Below are positions 1 to 6,933 of a stretch of DNA of 6,933 nucleotides, piece after piece. The position numbers and the translations under genes are program-made. Every line of letters begins with the position of its first letter. Position 1 is the first letter of the stretch. The notes beneath the pieces were generated by a model. That model was not told where the DNA came from, ran no database searches, and was given only the letters and a program-made list of their open reading frames with translations. The DNA is taken from IMG/VR virus record IMGVR_UViG_2548876700_000016. One strand, written 5' to 3'. This DNA is from a virus. Lineage: Duplodnaviria > Heunggongvirae > Uroviricota > Caudoviricetes.

Positions 1-183
1 CCGGAACTGATAAACAGGCATCACGCAATCATATTCGTAACCTTCACGGCGGTAAGTTACGCACCGTCCCGCCACGCCCTTAATCATTACCGTGCCGCCG
101 TACTGGTCGCGGTAAATATCACCGCGCGTAAATTTAGGGTGAGTGTTGCCACTGGCAGTTAAGCCAGAATATTTAAGTTTCAT
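1..183 (-). CDS. Hypothetical small protein, 5' part only (61 codons open to the window edge; 3' end lies beyond position 1)
   Basis: ATG at 183-181 on the minus strand with GGAGA about 9 nt upstream; starts 5 nt after the stop of the 189-422 gene; no stop codon through to the window edge. N-terminus reads MKLKYSGLTASGNTHPKFTRGDIYRDQYGG... Not on the ORF track because it is truncated. Confidence 0.4.
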   Translation of the reverse strand, partial: MKLKYSGLTASGNTHPKFTRGDIYRDQYGGTVMIKGVAGRCVTYRREGYEYDCVMPVYQFR

Positions 184-863: not shown

Positions 864-1320
864 AGGTTTCCCCCTGACGAATACGGGCGACAAAAATCAG
901 ATGTGCGTGCGGCAGCTGGGCGCGGGCTTCGCGTTCTGTTGCTGCCGTGACGGTAAAGAGTGAGGTTTGTTTTTCCTGGCACTGCATAAAGCGCCAGACA
1001 AAATAAGGGCGTGCGGATACAGCCATGTGAAAGGCTCCCAGATGAATTTTAAGGAGTCTCGCTACTACGCTGTCAAACATGGTGGCGAGACGTAACAGGG
1101 TTGACAGACTGGTCATCTGGAAACCAGCGAGCACAAAGGCTCCCCCGTTACGCCCCGCCATAATGCGGGTATGGGTAGGTTTACGGACACAAAAAAACCG
1201 CTTATCGGATGTGGGCGGCTGTCCGCCAGATGTATTCAGGCTGTCAAACCCGGTCGCCATGTGGGCGACGGGGGAAGCATACAGCCCCGTGATAATTTTT
1301 TGCAAGCGGTTTTTACGCAT
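853..1320 (-). CDS. Hypothetical protein (155 aa) whose C-terminal 57 aa are paralogous to the 67-aa protein at 1313-1516; may alternatively be expressed as a standalone 57-aa protein from the internal ATG at 1026
   Basis: Continuous ORF. ATG at 1320-1318 overlaps the upstream gene's stop by 8 nt with a GGGG SD. The internal ATG at 1026-1024 has its own GGGAG SD about 8 nt upstream. The C-terminal segment ...YFVWRFMQ...ATEREARAQ...LIFVARIRQG aligns with ...YIWRFIAL...ATSEQEARQQ...VFAARIRQG of the 1313-1516 protein, with synonymous codon differences (cgc/cgt, gcc/gca) that support this frame. Confidence 0.45.
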   Translation of the reverse strand: MRKNRLQKIITGLYASPVAHMATGFDSLNTSGGQPPTSDKRFFCVRKPTHTRIMAGRNGGAFVLAGFQMTSLSTLLRLATMFDSVVARLLKIHLGAFHMAVSARPYFVWRFMQCQEKQTSLFTVTAATEREARAQLPHAHLIFVARIRQGETYAQ

Positions 1321-1516
1321 GATGTGACCCCTGACGAATACGGGCAGCGAATACCATCACGCAGCCAGCCGGAGATTGCTGGCGTGCTTCCTGTTCGCTG
1401 GTGGCCTCAATGGTAATCACGCGCGGTTGTGCCGTGCTCAGGGCGATAAAACGCCAGATGTATTTATTCAGGTTGTGCGAGTCCCGCCCTTGCGGGTGTG
1501 TGGTATGATTTCTCAT
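1313..1516 (-). CDS. Hypothetical small protein (67 aa), first gene of the minus-strand small-gene operon
   Basis: ATG at 1516-1514 with GAGGT 4 nt upstream. It is the C-terminal 67 codons of the 354-aa track ORF. Paralogous to the C-terminus of the 853-1320 protein. Sits directly downstream of the divergent control region. Confidence 0.55.
   Translation of the reverse strand: MRNHTTHPQGRDSHNLNKYIWRFIALSTAQPRVITIEATSEQEARQQSPAGCVMVFAARIRQGSHHA
1501..1509 (+). promoter_or_regulatory. Candidate extended -10 promoter element (TGgTATGAT) on the plus strand
   Basis: Sequence tggtatgat fits the extended -10 consensus TGnTATAAT with one mismatch. It lies about 45 nt upstream of the terminator hairpin at 1553-1597 and inside the first codons of the minus-strand gene. 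No convincing -35, which is common for extended -10 promoters. Confidence 0.3.
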
Positions 1517-1552
1517 AGCTACCTCGATACGCTTTCTATCGTTGGTGGTTAG

Positions 1553-1597
1553 AAGCCCTGCGAGTGGTAACGACACTTGCGGGGCTTTGCTTTTTAC
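1553..1597 (+). terminator. Rho-independent terminator-like hairpin, plus-strand specific
   Basis: AAGCCCTGCGAGTG (1553-1566) pairs with CACTTGCGGGGCTT (1574-1587): 14 bp with two G-U wobbles that would be A-C mismatches in the minus-strand RNA. 7-nt loop, followed by TGCTTTTTA. Confidence 0.5.
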
Positions 1598-1612
1598 TGT
1601 ACCTACTGATAT

Positions 1613-1656
1613 TGTACGTACGTAACAGCAATGATAATAGGAGTTACGTACGTACA
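1613..1656. promoter_or_regulatory. Perfect 14-bp inverted repeat, candidate operator for the Arc-like repressor
   Basis: TGTACGTACGTAAC (1613-1626) and GTTACGTACGTACA (1643-1656), separated by 16 bp. The spacer contains the AGGAG Shine-Dalgarno (1639-1643) and the right arm abuts the ATG at 1656. A candidate minus-strand promoter (TACAAT / TTATCA) overlaps the arms. Confidence 0.55.
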
Positions 1657-1847
1657 TGTCAACATTAAAGCGCGATAAATCGCCACGCGGTGAGGGATGG
1701 TCTCCAACCTTCCAAATCAGAATCAGTAAAGAGCTACGCCAACAAGTAAATGAGGCGGCAACTTCTGACGGTCTAACCCTTGGTAACTGGTTTAAAGAAT
1801 TAGCTAGGGCAGAACTAAAGCGGCGCGGCATAGAGCCAAAAGGTTGA
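1656..1847 (+). CDS. Arc/Mnt-family ribbon-helix-helix DNA-binding protein (63 aa)
   Basis: PTFQIRISKELRQQVNEAATSDGLTLGNWFKELARAELKRRG aligns position by position with the P22 Arc core PQFNLRWPREVLDLVRKVAEENGRSVNSEIYQRVMESFKKEG (beta-strand F-x-L/I-R, then two helices). AGGAG SD at 1639-1643, 12 nt from the ATG. Confidence 0.75.
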   Translation: MSTLKRDKSPRGEGWSPTFQIRISKELRQQVNEAATSDGLTLGNWFKELARAELKRRGIEPKG

Positions 1848-2376: not shown

Positions 2377-3087
2377 TCAGCGAATCTCCAACACTGACGA
2401 TGAAGTGATCAGGCTGGCGAACGCATCCATACGGCGGGCAACCTCACGCACCGCATCGCCTGGACTCATGTCATTACGCACCGCCTCATTAAAGGCCGCC
2501 TGTTCGATTTTCTGCATCACTACCAACAGCCCCAATTGCTGTTCGTCTGCGGTACCGCGTTCACCATCAGACAAACCAGCCACGCGGTTTTCAGCGCGGG
2601 CCAGATTGATGTAATGGTGCCGTTGTGCGCCCAGAGCTTTTAATCTGTCGCGGCTTTCGTGATAGCCAGGCAGGTACTCACGGCGGATAGGTTCTGCGGC
2701 GCGGCGCTTAGTGAATGCCTTCGTAACATCCAGTTTGAACTGGTTAATACGCTCAGGATCACGCCCTCGGGTGATACGCAGCAGATAGTCGAGCTGCGGC
2801 TCATTCAGCAGATAACTAATCTCAGGACGCCCACGCTTTCGGCCGGATTTTCCCGATTTCAAATCGGTTAATTCCTTGAGTGACTGACGAGGCAGTGATC
2901 CCAGCTCGCGCAATCTGCTCTGGTGCGATTTAATCGTCGCGCTTAGGCTTTCATGTTGTATTCCGGCTCGCTCTGAAATAACGCGGGAATCGATACGCGG
3001 CTCCGATTTGTGATTAATTAAAATATCGCTCTGGCTGGCTTCAGGGTGAGCGAATCCCTGCCCGTTGAGGGCATTAATCTTTTTCAT
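2377..3087 (-). CDS. Rha-family phage regulatory protein (236 aa)
   Basis: N-terminal region IDSRVISERAGIQHESLSATIKSHQSRLRELG matches the Rha-domain signature D-S-R-x-I-x-E-x-x-G-x-x-H-x-x-L-x-x-x-I as I recall it. Starts 20 nt after the alpA-like stop, so probably co-transcribed. C-terminal region not recognised. Confidence 0.6.
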   Translation of the reverse strand: MKKINALNGQGFAHPEASQSDILINHKSEPRIDSRVISERAGIQHESLSATIKSHQSRLRELGSLPRQSLKELTDLKSGKSGRKRGRPEISYLLNEPQLDYLLRITRGRDPERINQFKLDVTKAFTKRRAAEPIRREYLPGYHESRDRLKALGAQRHHYINLARAENRVAGLSDGERGTADEQQLGLLVVMQKIEQAAFNEAVRNDMSPGDAVREVARRMDAFASLITSSSVLEIR

Positions 3088-3107: not shown

Positions 3108-3392
3108 TTAAGCAGATTTGCGGCTGTATGGGTTATTGACGTTCTCTACTACAGGCGGATTACGAACCCACCAGAGCACATCAGAAAGAAGCCAGGCACA
3201 GCTATTGCGGCCGAAGTGGCAGCGTGGCGGAAATCGTCCTTGCTGCTCCATTTTCCAACGGCTGGAACGGGAAAGGCTGGTGATCTCGCTACATTCTTCT
3301 TCACGGATTCGACGATCGAACTTAAAGCCGTACTCTTCTAAAAGGGTGCGGCGCTGTTCAGGATTAGGCGGGGTAAAAATGGGGTTTTGCAT
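3108..3392 (-). CDS. alpA: AlpA-family (Xis/MerR-like HTH) prophage transcriptional regulator (94 aa from the internal Met; the track ORF extends to 3434)
   Basis: EITSLSRSSRWKMEQQGRFPPRCHFGRNSCAWLLSDVLWWV follows the AlpA pattern (T-G/S-L-S-R-S-T-I-Y...G-x-F-P-x-P...W...E-V/I-x-x-W). GGAGG lies 4 nt upstream of the ATG at 3392-3390; the first Met of the track ORF (3434) has no SD. Confidence 0.75.
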   Translation of the reverse strand: MQNPIFTPPNPEQRRTLLEEYGFKFDRRIREEECSEITSLSRSSRWKMEQQGRFPPRCHFGRNSCAWLLSDVLWWVRNPPVVENVNNPYSRKSA

Positions 3393-3472
3393 GTTGCCTC
3401 CACTGTTTCTAAGTTTGTGGAGGCTAGTTTGCAACCGTTAACACTGGATAGAAATACAGTTGTAAGCATAGA

Positions 3473-3530: not shown

Positions 3531-4460
3531 TTACTGTGTTCTTTCGCTCGGCCTCTTATGCGCATTGTTTAATATTGCTGCTATTTTCGTTTCTGTTTTT
3601 ATTGGCAATTCACCATTGATGAACCAGTCAGGTCTGGCGATCAACTCACGGGCCCAGGCAGAATAGTTAATAGTTCCATCTGTTTTTCTGCAACTCTCAT
3701 TAAAAGCATTTTGCTGCTCTTCTTTGAAGCGCATGGCTACCATTAAAATTTGCTCTCGATTTCTTGCATGTCTTTCAGCAGAATGATGAACAATTTCATT
3801 GCCATTCATCTTATGAGGTTCTACAAATTCAATATCATCTGTCAGCGTGAAATAATCGCCACCACAGTCAAGGAGCCGCCTTATATCCTGAGCAGTAATC
3901 CACAAATCGTTTATAGAGATTTTATTTTTGAATACTTGATCGTCTTCTTCATCATAATCGCTATCTTCGCCAACCATTAAAAGCTGTACGGCGGGATTAT
4001 CAGTTTCTGGATGGCACGGGGTTAATTCAAAACCACTTAGGGCATACTCTCCAAAATTTTGTAGCTCTTCTAATCCGCTCCAAAGACGCCACAACCCATA
4101 AGCCTTACCAATAGAACTGAAACACCCATTTTCTGTATCTTGACCAAATAAAGGCACGTGAATCGTTTCTTCCGTTTCCTCATTGTAATCGCATCTGTAG
4201 AGATGAAGCCTGGAAAATTCAGTAATATTGTTTCCCATCATGGATGTGGTGGAGTTTGCCTTTCTGGTATCGAACCAGTCGCATGCAGATTTGCTGTCAG
4301 TTCTCATATATAAAACAGCGCGAGCATCAAACAAATTTAGACATAAAGATATTTTTTTAGTAACACCTAAATTAATCAGGTCGCTAATCTCACAACCCAG
4401 CAATCTCGACGCACGTTCAATATTGCAGTATTGAAAAGGTATTTTAATGTCGTTAGCCAT
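3531..4460 (-). CDS. Hypothetical protein (309 aa), AT-rich orphan cargo gene of unknown function
   Basis: ORF-track ORF with GAGGG SD 7 nt upstream of ATG at 4460-4458. Visibly more AT-rich than the flanking int and alpA/rha genes. N-terminal stretch IERASRLLGCEISDLINLG looks HTH-like; central acidic stretch EDSDYDEEDD. No P-loop, nuclease or other catalytic motif recognised by eye. Confidence 0.7.
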   Translation of the reverse strand: MANDIKIPFQYCNIERASRLLGCEISDLINLGVTKKISLCLNLFDARAVLYMRTDSKSACDWFDTRKANSTTSMMGNNITEFSRLHLYRCDYNEETEETIHVPLFGQDTENGCFSSIGKAYGLWRLWSGLEELQNFGEYALSGFELTPCHPETDNPAVQLLMVGEDSDYDEEDDQVFKNKISINDLWITAQDIRRLLDCGGDYFTLTDDIEFVEPHKMNGNEIVHHSAERHARNREQILMVAMRFKEEQQNAFNESCRKTDGTINYSAWARELIARPDWFINGELPIKTETKIAAILNNAHKRPSERTQ

Positions 4461-4497
4461 TGCGCTGCCCTCAACGCCCCTAAATTAATTTGCGAGC

Positions 4498-4522
4498 CAA
4501 GCGGGTAGGGTTTCCCGCTTTT
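4498..4522. other. Short hairpin in the int/orphan intergenic region, weak terminator candidate
   Basis: AAGCGGG (4499-4505) / CCCGCTT (4514-4520) with an 8-nt loop. The plus-strand tail is TTTTCGG; the minus-strand tail has no T-run. Confidence 0.25.
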
Positions 4523-4553
4523 CGGTTGGCCGACCTAGGCCCGCAATATCAGT

Positions 4554-5780
4554 TTAATCTCTATTCATTACAGGTAACAGAACCACATTTTGATGATTAC
4601 CCGCAAGAAGTTCTAATCGTTCATACCACTTATTCAGCGCGTCCAGCTTCTCAGGCAAGTACAGACTACGGTTATAAATCGCCATAACTCCCGGCATTGA
4701 GTGCCCCAACAACTGTTCGACAACGTGTGGTGCTATACCCATATTATTCATATGCGTTGCTAAAGTTCGTCTTAGATCGTGCAGTGTCCATGGTTCAGAA
4801 TGCCCCAGCTTTTTATAAACGCTACGGCCCCACTGGCTTACCGCTTCACTGCCTTTAACCGACCCAAGCAAAAGACCGGATAGTTTCGTTTCATCATGCA
4901 GTATTTCAATGAATTTGCGCATGGCATCCGGCACAGGTCTTACAATCTTCTCGCCGCCCTTGCTGTGCTCTTTGGGAACTGTCCAGACCCAGGCATCCAT
5001 ATCCCATTCACTCCACTCTGATAGTCTGGCCTCCTGCGTTCGGCACCCAAACACCATTAAGATTGTCAGTAGCCTGGTGTAGTAAGGCATGAAGCAAGTG
5101 CTAGAGGTAATGGCAGTCCATAAATCGCCAGCCTCTTTATCGTTTAATACCCGATCTTTTTTTGCCTGTTTTTTACCGACATCTGGAATTGTTAAATCTT
5201 CAAGCGCGGTACTCACAGCATAGCGACGAACCCGGCAGAATTTCAGGGCTTGTTTGCACATCTGGAACACATAACCTGCGGCGACTGGCGTTTTCTTTTT
5301 CATCCTGTCAAAGCAGTCAAGCCAGTATCGGGTTTCGCAGTCAGCGAGCGCCATTTTTCCAATGTAAGGGTAAATATGTTTGCGTAGCTCCGCTTTATGC
5401 CGCTCAACATTCGCGCGATTCTCTTCTGCATATTCACGTATCCAGTATTCGATAGCTTCCTGCACCGTGACCGGTTTAAGCGTTTCCTGAGTAGTTAGCG
5501 CCAACTGGTGCTTTGGGTCTTTACCTGAGGCCAGCCACTGGCGGCATTTATCACGCGAGGAACGGGCCTCTTTGAGGCTCATATCCGGGTATCGTCCCAG
5601 AGTAAGACGATGCAACTTCTGCCCGTCGAGTCGGTAAGTAAACACCCAGCTAATACCACCAGCTTTCGTTACCTTGGCACTCAGCCCGGCACCATCAGCA
5701 TAGAACTCAATCTTACTGGCCGGGATGCCATGTAATCCCTTTAACTTCCTGTCGCTCAGTTTGTTAAGTTCGCCAGCCAT
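4554..5780 (-). CDS. int: Tyrosine recombinase/integrase, P4-type with an N-terminal arm-binding domain (408 aa from Met at 5780; the track ORF extends to 5864)
   Basis: C-terminal catalytic signature HDLRRT ... LLGHS ... AIYNRS (R, H-x-x-R, H, Y). N-terminal pattern L-x-D-x-K...DG-x-GL...W...YR...G-K...LG-x-YP-x-x-SL-x-x-AR typical of P4/CP4-type integrases. The Mets at 5864 and 5840 lack an SD; the Met at 5780 has a weak GGTGG. Confidence 0.85.
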   Translation of the reverse strand: MAGELNKLSDRKLKGLHGIPASKIEFYADGAGLSAKVTKAGGISWVFTYRLDGQKLHRLTLGRYPDMSLKEARSSRDKCRQWLASGKDPKHQLALTTQETLKPVTVQEAIEYWIREYAEENRANVERHKAELRKHIYPYIGKMALADCETRYWLDCFDRMKKKTPVAAGYVFQMCKQALKFCRVRRYAVSTALEDLTIPDVGKKQAKKDRVLNDKEAGDLWTAITSSTCFMPYYTRLLTILMVFGCRTQEARLSEWSEWDMDAWVWTVPKEHSKGGEKIVRPVPDAMRKFIEILHDETKLSGLLLGSVKGSEAVSQWGRSVYKKLGHSEPWTLHDLRRTLATHMNNMGIAPHVVEQLLGHSMPGVMAIYNRSLYLPEKLDALNKWYERLELLAGNHQNVVLLPVMNRD

Positions 5781-5797
5781 AGACCACCAGCCCAAAG

Positions 5798-5819
5798 TGT
5801 TTATACAAATGTTTATACA
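5798..5819. repeat. Tandem direct repeat TGTTTATACA x2 (12-bp period) upstream of the int start
   Basis: tgtttatacaaa / tgtttatacag at 5798-5819, about 20 nt upstream of the int ATG in an AT-rich junction-proximal region. The position fits integrase arm-type or IHF-like sites; this is inference. Confidence 0.3.
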
Positions 5820-5947
5820 GAATTGCTTGCATAATAGCATAAACAAAGAAAAACACTGGAACAATATACAGGCATAAATTTAAATAAGCCATTGATTATT
5901 ATATAAATACTAAAATCACCTAAAAGCATGAAAACAGCTAATCTGAC

Positions 5948-5964: not shown

Positions 5965-5990
5965 TTCAGGTTAGCTAATTGCTTGATTAA

Positions 5991-6026
5991 AAGGCGCTAC
6001 TCGGCATGGGGAAGCGCCTTTTTTAT
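5991..6026 (+). terminator. Rho-independent terminator (the native fis terminator in its chromosomal context)
   Basis: AAGGCGCT (5991-5998) / AGCGCCTT (6013-6020), 8-bp perfect stem with a 14-nt loop, followed by TTTTTTAT. Confidence 0.7.
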
Positions 6027-6048
6027 AGGTGTCACAAAGGGAGTGACC

Positions 6049-6933
6049 ATGAGAACAGGATGTGAACCGACCCGGTTTGGTAATGAAGCTAAGACCATTA
6101 TTCACGGTGATGCCCTTGCCGAACTTAAAAAGCTACCTACTGAAAGCGTCGATCTGATCTTTGCCGACCCACCGTATAACATCGGTAAAAATTTTGATGG
6201 TCTGATCGAAGCCTGGAAAGAAGATCTGTTTATCGACTGGCTGTTAGAAGTGATTGCAGAGTGCCACCGCGTTCTGAAAAAGCAGGGCAGCATGTACATC
6301 ATGAACAGTACGGAAAACATGCCCTTTATCGATCTCCAGTGCCGCAAGCTTTTTACCATCAAAAGTCGCATCGTCTGGTCATATGACAGTTCTGGAGTGC
6401 AGGCGAAAAAACACTACGGCTCCATGTACGAACCCATCCTGATGATGGTGAAAGACGCAAAGAACTACACATTCAACGGTGATGCTATTCTGGTAGAAGC
6501 CAAAACCGGATCGCAGCGCGCGTTGATCGATTATCGCAAAAATCCTCCACAGCCTTACAATCATCAAAAAGTACCGGGTAACGTCTGGGATTTTCCGCGC
6601 GTGCGTTATTTGATGGATGAATATGAAAACCACCCGACGCAAAAACCGGAAGCCTTACTGAAACGCATTATTCTCGCCTCTTCCAACCCAGGCGATATCG
6701 TTCTCGACCCGTTTGCTGGTAGCTTTACTACCGGTGCCGTAGCCATCGCCAGCGGACGAAAATTCATTGGTATTGAGATCAACAGCGAGTACATCAAAAT
6801 GGGGCTTCGACGGCTGGATGTCGCGTCGCATTACTCTGCGGAAGAACTGGCGAAAGTGAAAAAAAGAAAGACCGGCAACCTGTCAAAACGAAGCCGGTTA
6901 AGCGAAGTTGACCCCGATCTCATTACAAAGTAA
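6049..6933 (+). CDS. yhdJ: DNA N6-adenine methyltransferase YhdJ (294 aa)
   Basis: Recognised as YhdJ from MRTGCEPTRFGNEAKTIIHGDALAELKK... and the DPPY motif (LIFADPPYNIG). AAGGGAG SD 7 nt upstream of ATG at 6049. The track ORF (5983-6933) adds an N-terminal extension that runs through the upstream terminator and is not credible. Confidence 0.9.
   Translation: MRTGCEPTRFGNEAKTIIHGDALAELKKLPTESVDLIFADPPYNIGKNFDGLIEAWKEDLFIDWLLEVIAECHRVLKKQGSMYIMNSTENMPFIDLQCRKLFTIKSRIVWSYDSSGVQAKKHYGSMYEPILMMVKDAKNYTFNGDAILVEAKTGSQRALIDYRKNPPQPYNHQKVPGNVWDFPRVRYLMDEYENHPTQKPEALLKRIILASSNPGDIVLDPFAGSFTTGAVAIASGRKFIGIEINSEYIKMGLRRLDVASHYSAEELAKVKKRKTGNLSKRSRLSEVDPDLITK

Follow-up and report, generated by a model that had tools for sequence, protein, structure and literature searches.

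A predicted cis-antisense small RNA gene opposite the ribosome binding site of an Icd-like leader ORF in enterobacterial PICI-type phage satellites

We propose that positions 1462-1597 of the DNA analysed here (6,933 nucleotides, hereafter the window) hold a self-contained gene for a cis-antisense small RNA (sRNA) that would block translation of the Icd-like ORF on the opposite strand, damping the early operon; the probability of this reading is put at about 0.7. The original prediction had a plus-strand RNA of about 1516-1597 running antisense to the leader and Shine-Dalgarno sequence of this ORF, and the comparison with relatives argues for it through a conserved -10 element, a covarying terminator that forms on the plus strand only and the discreteness of the cassette that carries both (Table 1).

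Table 1. Features of the window that bear on the predicted antisense sRNA gene and its surroundings.
Feature	Position	Strand	Remarks
Conserved cassette, ~130 bp	1462-1590	+	promoter, sRNA region and first ~18 codons of the opposite ORF
Extended -10 TGgTATGAT (TGGTATGAT)	1501-1509	+	hexamer 1504-1509
Predicted antisense sRNA, ~80 nt	1516-1597	+	5' end from the -10 position (1515-1517), 3' end from the T-run
Stem-loop 1	1516-1551	+	anti-Shine-Dalgarno CCUC at 1522-1525 in the 5' arm; 7-nt loop
Stem-loop 2, predicted intrinsic terminator stem	1552-1588	+
T-rich tail TTTGCTTTTT	1586-1595	+	first three T also close the stem
Icd-like leader ORF, 67 aa	1313-1516	-	NCBIfam NF033153, E = 1.4e-19
GAGG Shine-Dalgarno of the Icd-like ORF	1525..1522	-
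Predicted leftward sigma-70 promoter TTGACA-17-TATTAT	1662..1634	-	11/12 matches; predicted start near 1627
Operator-like perfect 14-nt inverted repeat TGTACGTACGTAAC / GTTACGTACGTACA	1613-1626 / 1643-1656		flanks the leftward -10
Candidate RHH promoter TGaTATTGT	1607-1615	+	by eye, weak
RHH-like, YlcI/YnfO-like small protein	1656-1847	+	presumed repressor at the operators; weak HicB and YlcI_YnfO_N matches
C4 RNA (RF01695, clan CL00128)	1078-1165	-	cmscan, 72.6 bits
isrK-like match	1191-1269	-	sub-threshold
c4-a1b1 target motif	1233-1282	-	46.8 bits
Rha-like gene	2377-3087	-
AlpA homologue	3108-3434	-
int-alpA RNA	4477-4545	-	Rfam RF02996, 61.2 bits
Integrase (tyrosine)	4554-5864	-
DNA methyltransferase gene	5983-6933		chromosomal, beside the integrative element

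The window (6.9 kb) covers one end of an integrative element whose layout, judged by sequence, is that of an enterobacterial PICI-type phage satellite. The first gene of its leftward operon is the 67-aa Icd-like ORF, whose 204-nt coding sequence is also annotated in RefSeq relatives, where the operon continues with DUF4222, a DUF927 or primase gene and SSB. Rightward genes comprise only the 63-aa RHH/YlcI-like protein and a 50-aa ORF (1869-2021), and no plus-strand gene lies 5' of the sRNA region in the satellite elements inspected. In one relative (L003, 2496-2846) RefSeq gives the Icd-like CDS as 351 nt, spanning the sRNA region, against 204 nt in the other relatives; its start is probably over-extended, and the 354-aa ORF at 1313-2377 in the mechanical ORF list of the window is the same artefact. 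A plus-strand ORF at 1376-1552 (58 aa, TTG start), which ends at the hairpin, was considered as a coding explanation and rejected: the gene on the strand opposite has good support, and the RNA start predicted near 1516 falls inside the ORF. At the far side of the element the int-alpA RNA lies directly 3' of the integrase gene and before an ORF on the same strand (3531-4460).

Relatives were collected by megablast of 1300-1900 against 5426 complete E. coli genomes, by an exact-pattern scan of viral contigs (120 loci, L004-L123) and by a protein-seeded scan of one genome per species (10 loci, L124-L133); filtering left 99 family loci with 83 unique upstream, 68 unique hairpin and 72 unique sRNA-region sequences. 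Megablast matched 1400 of the 5426 genomes, with homology typically stopping at 1588-1599 or near 1558, and in comparison with locus L017 it starts sharply near 1462 and stops at the hairpin, the DNA on both sides being unrelated. The same hairpin is joined to differing tails and differing downstream modules among relatives. By these borders the region 1462-1590 is a discrete cassette. Queried by itself (136 bp), the cassette is found in 1101 of the 5426 complete E. coli genomes (734 match 80% or more of its length), and in up to six copies per genome, all chromosomal; carriers include E. coli TUM1881 (NZ_CP128979, near 1,851,840-1,851,975) and an O157:H7 F8798-type element near cspD. A blastn search of 50,697 phage records gave matches to the C4 region and to one unrelated stretch of the window only, and none to 1500-1600. 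A covariance model (R1), built from the 72-sequence alignment, scores 87 bits in the window and 39-92 bits in the nine loci of the genome collection that have upstream DNA (from Cedecea, Edwardsiella, Rahnella, Intestinirhabdus, Superficieibacter, Rosenbergiella, Enterobacter, Tenebrionibacter and E. ruysiae); in all nine species the motif is antisense to, and immediately 5' of, an Icd-like gene.

Folding of the plus-strand RNA 1516-1600 gives two hairpins, with an energy of -40.1 kcal/mol that none of 200 shuffles reaches (z = -6.6). The structure of minimum free energy coincides with the centroid and makes up 0.44 of the ensemble. Stem-loop 2 is the strongest terminator-like site of the whole window, with 15 pairs (8 G-C and 3 G.U), a 7-nt loop and then GCTTTTTACT; this G+C-rich stem-loop with a U-rich tract directly 3' predicts an intrinsic terminator. 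The strong plus-strand hairpin and its T-run had been described correctly at the outset, while the 14-bp stem is in fact one of 15 pairs and the gap of about 45 nt from the -10 element one of 43 nt. Folding the plus against the minus transcript, which had been suggested as a check, yields two stable hairpins on plus, whereas the minus-strand version of hairpin 2 is interrupted by mismatches, folds more weakly and has no U-run after it. In relatives the tail is likewise T-rich on the plus strand only, is interrupted in many of them and has a mean of 5 U per 10 nt after the full stem; where the U-tract is interrupted, termination may be partial.

The target of this RNA would be the leader of the leftward operon. 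The site at 1662..1634 is the best promoter-like site in the window, and because it lies beyond the hairpin, the predicted Icd-like mRNA leader of about 110 nt holds the full complement of 1516-1597, including the GAGG; by this geometry the perfect complementarity to the 5' leader and Shine-Dalgarno sequence that was originally claimed is correct. A strict leftward promoter (TTGACN-16..18-TAnnnT) is present in 58 of 84 unique relatives, giving 5' UTRs of 101-120 nt. The window thus has what a cis-antisense gene is recognised by: a discrete short unit on the opposite strand, with predicted promoter and terminator about 90 bp apart and conserved together, and a complement that includes the Shine-Dalgarno sequence within the target mRNA. 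The inverted repeat flanking the leftward -10 gives seven matches against 1.1 expected, and relatives each have their own element-specific palindrome at the same position by this -10. Together the RHH gene and the repeat look like an exchangeable repressor/operator immunity module. In all RHH-type relatives, as in the window, the complement of the RHH gene start (ATGTCAAC, 1656-1662) is the -35 element TTGACA of the leftward promoter.

In nearly all relatives a small co-oriented DNA-binding gene follows 3' of the terminator, either of the RHH type (MST..KRDK, about 60 nt away, as in the window) or of the YlcI/YnfO type (MATKAVNAKSQ, about 120 nt away). The promoter at 1501-1509 could then mainly serve this gene, the hairpin being a partial terminator that sets read-through and the short RNA a by-product; attenuation of the RHH operon had been offered as an alternative from the start. 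Promoter, terminator and co-oriented gene are all present, the many imperfect U-tracts make read-through plausible, and the only promoter seen for the RHH gene of the window itself is a weak candidate. However, YlcI-type loci have a good separate promoter between terminator and gene (e.g. TTGAAT-16-TATAGT), and RHH-type relatives also have candidates, most type-A relatives showing TGnTAAnnT at the place of the candidate RHH promoter; with such plausible separate promoters downstream, the hairpin need not be a leader attenuator. The homology border between hairpin and gene implies that the two are exchanged independently, and no competing antiterminator fold is apparent in the RNA 1516-1600, in which one structure is both optimum and centroid. 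We therefore consider attenuation the weaker reading and an unlikely one, although it is compatible with the sRNA model and does not exclude it.

Whether the cassette has a dedicated promoter at all turns on the -10 element, which lies exactly where the original prediction placed it. It has no recognisable -35 element, and TGNTATNAT is expected by chance 1.15 times per window, so that a lone match is not significant; the weight of the match comes from its conservation in relatives and not from the single window. Among the 83 unique upstream sequences, anchored on the start codon, the hexamer has T in 82, A in 82, T in 81, a variable fourth base, A in 77 and T in 83, and the G of the TG motif is kept in 81. 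It accordingly has the marks of a sigma-70 extended -10 element, a TGn motif ahead of a hexamer that resembles TATAAT and keeps -12 T, -11 A and -7 T, and these three bases are invariant or nearly so even in clades whose coding sequence is otherwise unalignable. The distance from -10 to start codon is fixed within clades. In a second Icd-like clade (MAELQHTQT...) the -10 element is found at a shifted place, with GGTATGCT ten bases before the start codon, and the predicted RNA of this clade would extend over the AUG as well.

Since the promoter overlaps codons 3-6 of the opposite-strand Icd-like gene, its conserved bases are also read in codons 3-5, and a terminator without a dedicated promoter could be imagined here that does no more than shield the control region from stray antisense transcription, its -10 look-alike being kept by the N-terminal N-H-T motif of the protein. 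The insignificance of the -10 in one window and the partial conservation of residues 3-5 would fit such an insulator, and protein constraint on the N/Q-H/Y-T residues over the -10 may indeed contribute to the conservation. The codons speak against it as the main cause. Codon 4 encodes His, Tyr, Asn or Ser, yet its third base is T (the -11 A) in 56 of 56 sequences, the synonymous C-ending forms being found in none; codon 5 encodes Thr, Ile or Asn with a first base that is always A (the -12 T), and codon 3 encodes Asn, Gln, Asp or Lys with a middle base that is always A (the -7 T). The amino-acid change falls at the weakly constrained fourth hexamer position, so that non-synonymous changes are tolerated exactly where the hexamer matters least. 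We conclude from this pattern of substitutions that the -10 element is under nucleotide-level constraint. The fixed spacing within clades and the shifted -10 of the second clade likewise disfavour the insulator, as does the lack of upstream plus-strand genes in these elements, and we judge it quite improbable, below attenuation.

Two further observations concern the DNA just 5' of the promoter. A small hairpin, CCCGC-CCTT-GCGGG (CCCGCCCTTGCGGG), lies at 1483-1496, where the opposite strand encodes residues 7-11 of the Icd-like protein; the main clade conserves it, and no compensatory changes were seen in the upstream sequences of relatives. The A/T-rich stretch TTTATTCAGG (1462-1471) falls on the left border of the cassette, at about -55 to -45 relative to where the sRNA is predicted to start, and might, speculatively, be an UP-like element.

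The hairpins themselves indicate which strand is selected. Stem-loop 2 occurs in at least 41 sequence variants among relatives, and in the alignment of 72 unique sequences compensatory changes are seen in 12 of the 23 predicted pairs, 11 of them among the 13 of stem-loop 2. Paired cells amount to 97.1%, compared with 88.7% in shuffles (0 of 500 reach the observed value) and 33-55% when the 3' partners are slid. Of the 68 unique hairpin versions 66 are more stable on the plus strand, the means being -26.3 kcal/mol for plus and -18.6 for minus. The original claim that G-U wobbles confine the pairing to the plus transcript is borne out by the relatives, whose plus folds contain 121 G.U pairs and 0 A.C 1x1 mismatches, against 11 G.U and 41 A.C in the minus folds; symmetric mutation could not produce such a bias, which means that the structure is selected in the plus-strand transcript. 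In stem-loop 1 an invariant G.U at columns 3/34 also pairs on plus only, and the 3' arm is non-coding and yet nearly invariant. The loops are hypervariable (26 variants in stem-loop 1 among the 72 sequences, and 19 in stem-loop 2) and the stems are kept, as expected if the loops make the first contact between antisense RNA and target. A role on the minus strand or as DNA, be it a hairpin in the mRNA leader (for RNase III or antitermination, for example) or an inverted repeat bound by a protein, is very improbable in the face of this bias. The complement in the operon 5' UTR does still fold, if more weakly, and other systems are described that have AlpA-type regulators and leader terminators. 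But the wobbles are almost all on plus, A.C mismatches break the minus hairpin in most variants, no U-run follows it there, and a binding site would keep its sequence and not take 41 different stems.

We propose the following course of events for the antisense sRNA. Transcription from the extended -10 would start near 1516, opposite the Icd-like start codon, and the RNA of about 80 nt would fold into two stem-loops and end at its own intrinsic terminator (1552-1595). The sRNA would pair with the mRNA leader, probably first at the loops, and the pairing would occlude the ribosome binding site, so that the Icd-like ORF would go untranslated. Early and replication genes farther down the operon would in turn be expressed less, through polarity or decay, by analogy with icd-ant of P1. 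Together with the adjacent RHH/YlcI-type repressor, the sRNA would prevent expression of the early operon, and of a potentially toxic inhibitor of cell division, until induction, and the face-to-face promoters, about 110 bp apart, may add transcriptional interference. It fits the model, in our own view of the strand bias, that G.U pairs would keep the sRNA well folded while the matching A.C positions would leave the Shine-Dalgarno region of the mRNA more open.

The predicted RNA does not belong to a curated family. A cmscan of the window with Rfam 15, which we take to include sar, FinP, CopA and RNA-OUT, gave no match at 1501-1597 with E <= 1, and in 12 related loci nothing reached the gathering score at the homologous place; C4/CI, isrK, sar, FinP and other curated families are thereby ruled out, in keeping with the original remark that the element is homologous neither to sar nor to P4 CI. 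Several known systems are nevertheless close in design. RNA-OUT of IS10/Tn10 is transcribed from a promoter inside the 5' end of its target gene, facing the target promoter; this stable, structured RNA has about 70-80 nt and is complementary to the region of its target (RNA-IN) where ribosomes bind. The predicted sRNA resembles it in promoter placement, in being a stable antisense RNA of about 80 nt and in the control expected at translation initiation; it differs in having two hairpins with a separate terminator and a satellite leader ORF as target, where RNA-OUT has a single long stem-loop and acts on the transposase, and the two share no homology of sequence or structure. In the immI region of P22, sar is a short antisense RNA opposite a strong promoter, over the ribosome site of the first regulated gene, in the company of the RHH repressors Arc and Mnt. 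All of this is predicted here as well, including a small RHH/YlcI-type repressor beside the RNA, but the sar target is the antirepressor, whereas here it would be an Icd-like ORF in a PICI-type satellite, and the two are not homologous. The likeness to sar that had been drawn originally is apt as regards mechanism, and that to P4 CI is not: a C4/CI-type RNA is present elsewhere in the window.

FinP of F-like plasmids measures about 80 nt, forms two stem-loops ahead of a U tail and is antisense to the gene that heads its cascade, over the 5' UTR and ribosome site; finO lies further along the tra operon. Size, the two stem-loops, the U tail and the target site agree with those predicted here, and in 16 of 77 related elements with enough sequence a ProQ/FinO-family gene lies about 4 kb down the Icd-like operon (e.g. 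L134, 1707-2123, minus strand); the RNAs are not homologous, and most relatives lack a FinO-like gene. Such a ProQ/FinO-family protein may serve the antisense RNA as a chaperone, in the way that FinO serves FinP. In plasmid R1 a promoter repressor (CopB) and an antisense RNA to the leader (CopA) control an operon that runs into replication genes, the RNA acting on a small leader ORF. The same combination of repressor and antisense RNA on a small leader ORF ahead of replication genes is predicted here, in another type of element and with no homology.

In P1, C4 blocks translation of icd and the downstream gene is shut off. The C4 RNAs of P1/P7 and CI of P4 (RF01695) are similar in their setting, an immunity or early operon with an icd-type leader ORF under RNA control; they are cut from the sense transcript and pair through short loops, unlike the true antisense transcript predicted here. 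The window has matches to this system as well, and the C4, a1/b1 and isrK-like matches sit between two Icd-like ORFs (1313-1516 and 853-1071). The operon seems from these matches to carry two successive RNA controls, each before an Icd-like ORF; the C4 module was found in one of 12 related loci scanned (L017).

Searches of the literature on PICIs, AlpA, Icd-like proteins and small RNAs found no description of this antisense RNA family, and a full-text search for a conserved 16-mer, on either strand and as DNA or RNA, returned no papers. The founding paper on Gram-negative PICIs, in which AlpA is an activator and the global repressor is described as unclear (PMC6092414), does not mention such an antisense RNA, nor does the EcCIMP1 paper; the HE-PICI paper reports only C4 and isrK RNA matches in PICIs (PMC10111431), and a preprint on Pas sRNAs concerns lambdoid prophages. 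Among the Hfq-bound sRNAs of O157 Sakai (Tree 2014, Table S2), none of those that could be placed from the part of the source available maps to such an element, which was itself not located in Sakai; of the two EcOnc candidate sites checked there, one lies in a lambdoid prophage (Sp4) and the other in an effector island (SpLE3), and neither in a PICI. The cassette RNA is unannotated in the RefSeq records inspected. The type of mechanism, a cis-antisense sRNA, would be ordinary, and the RNA family itself appears new as far as searched.

The silencing and switching of PICI-type satellites are poorly understood, and this control region makes three components accessible to mutation: a leftward promoter under operator control, a small repressor gene that is exchangeable and a conserved predicted antisense RNA gene. 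The RNA would act at the ribosome site of the operon's first gene, whose Icd-like product is a putative cell-division inhibitor. About 20% of complete E. coli genomes carry the cassette, often more than once, and it also occurs in other enterobacterial genera; with a covariance model it could be annotated, and a single synonymous mutation would probe its function. A wider idea, which we hold as doubtful, is that the antisense RNA and the swappable RHH/YlcI repressor form an immunity or maintenance switch of Gram-negative PICI-type satellites, with loops that define specificity classes as in plasmid incompatibility and a FinOP-like pair in the roughly 20% that have a ProQ/FinO-family protein. 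If this were true, satellites with shared loops would cross-silence, which would matter since a genome can hold up to six copies.

A further palindrome, CGTACGTTAAACGTACG, lies at 2221-2237 on the plus strand, about 200 nt 3' of the 50-aa ORF, and is followed by T-rich sequence. It resembles the operator half-site GTCCGTACGTTAA, from which it differs at 3 positions, and could serve as a terminator or as a third operator.
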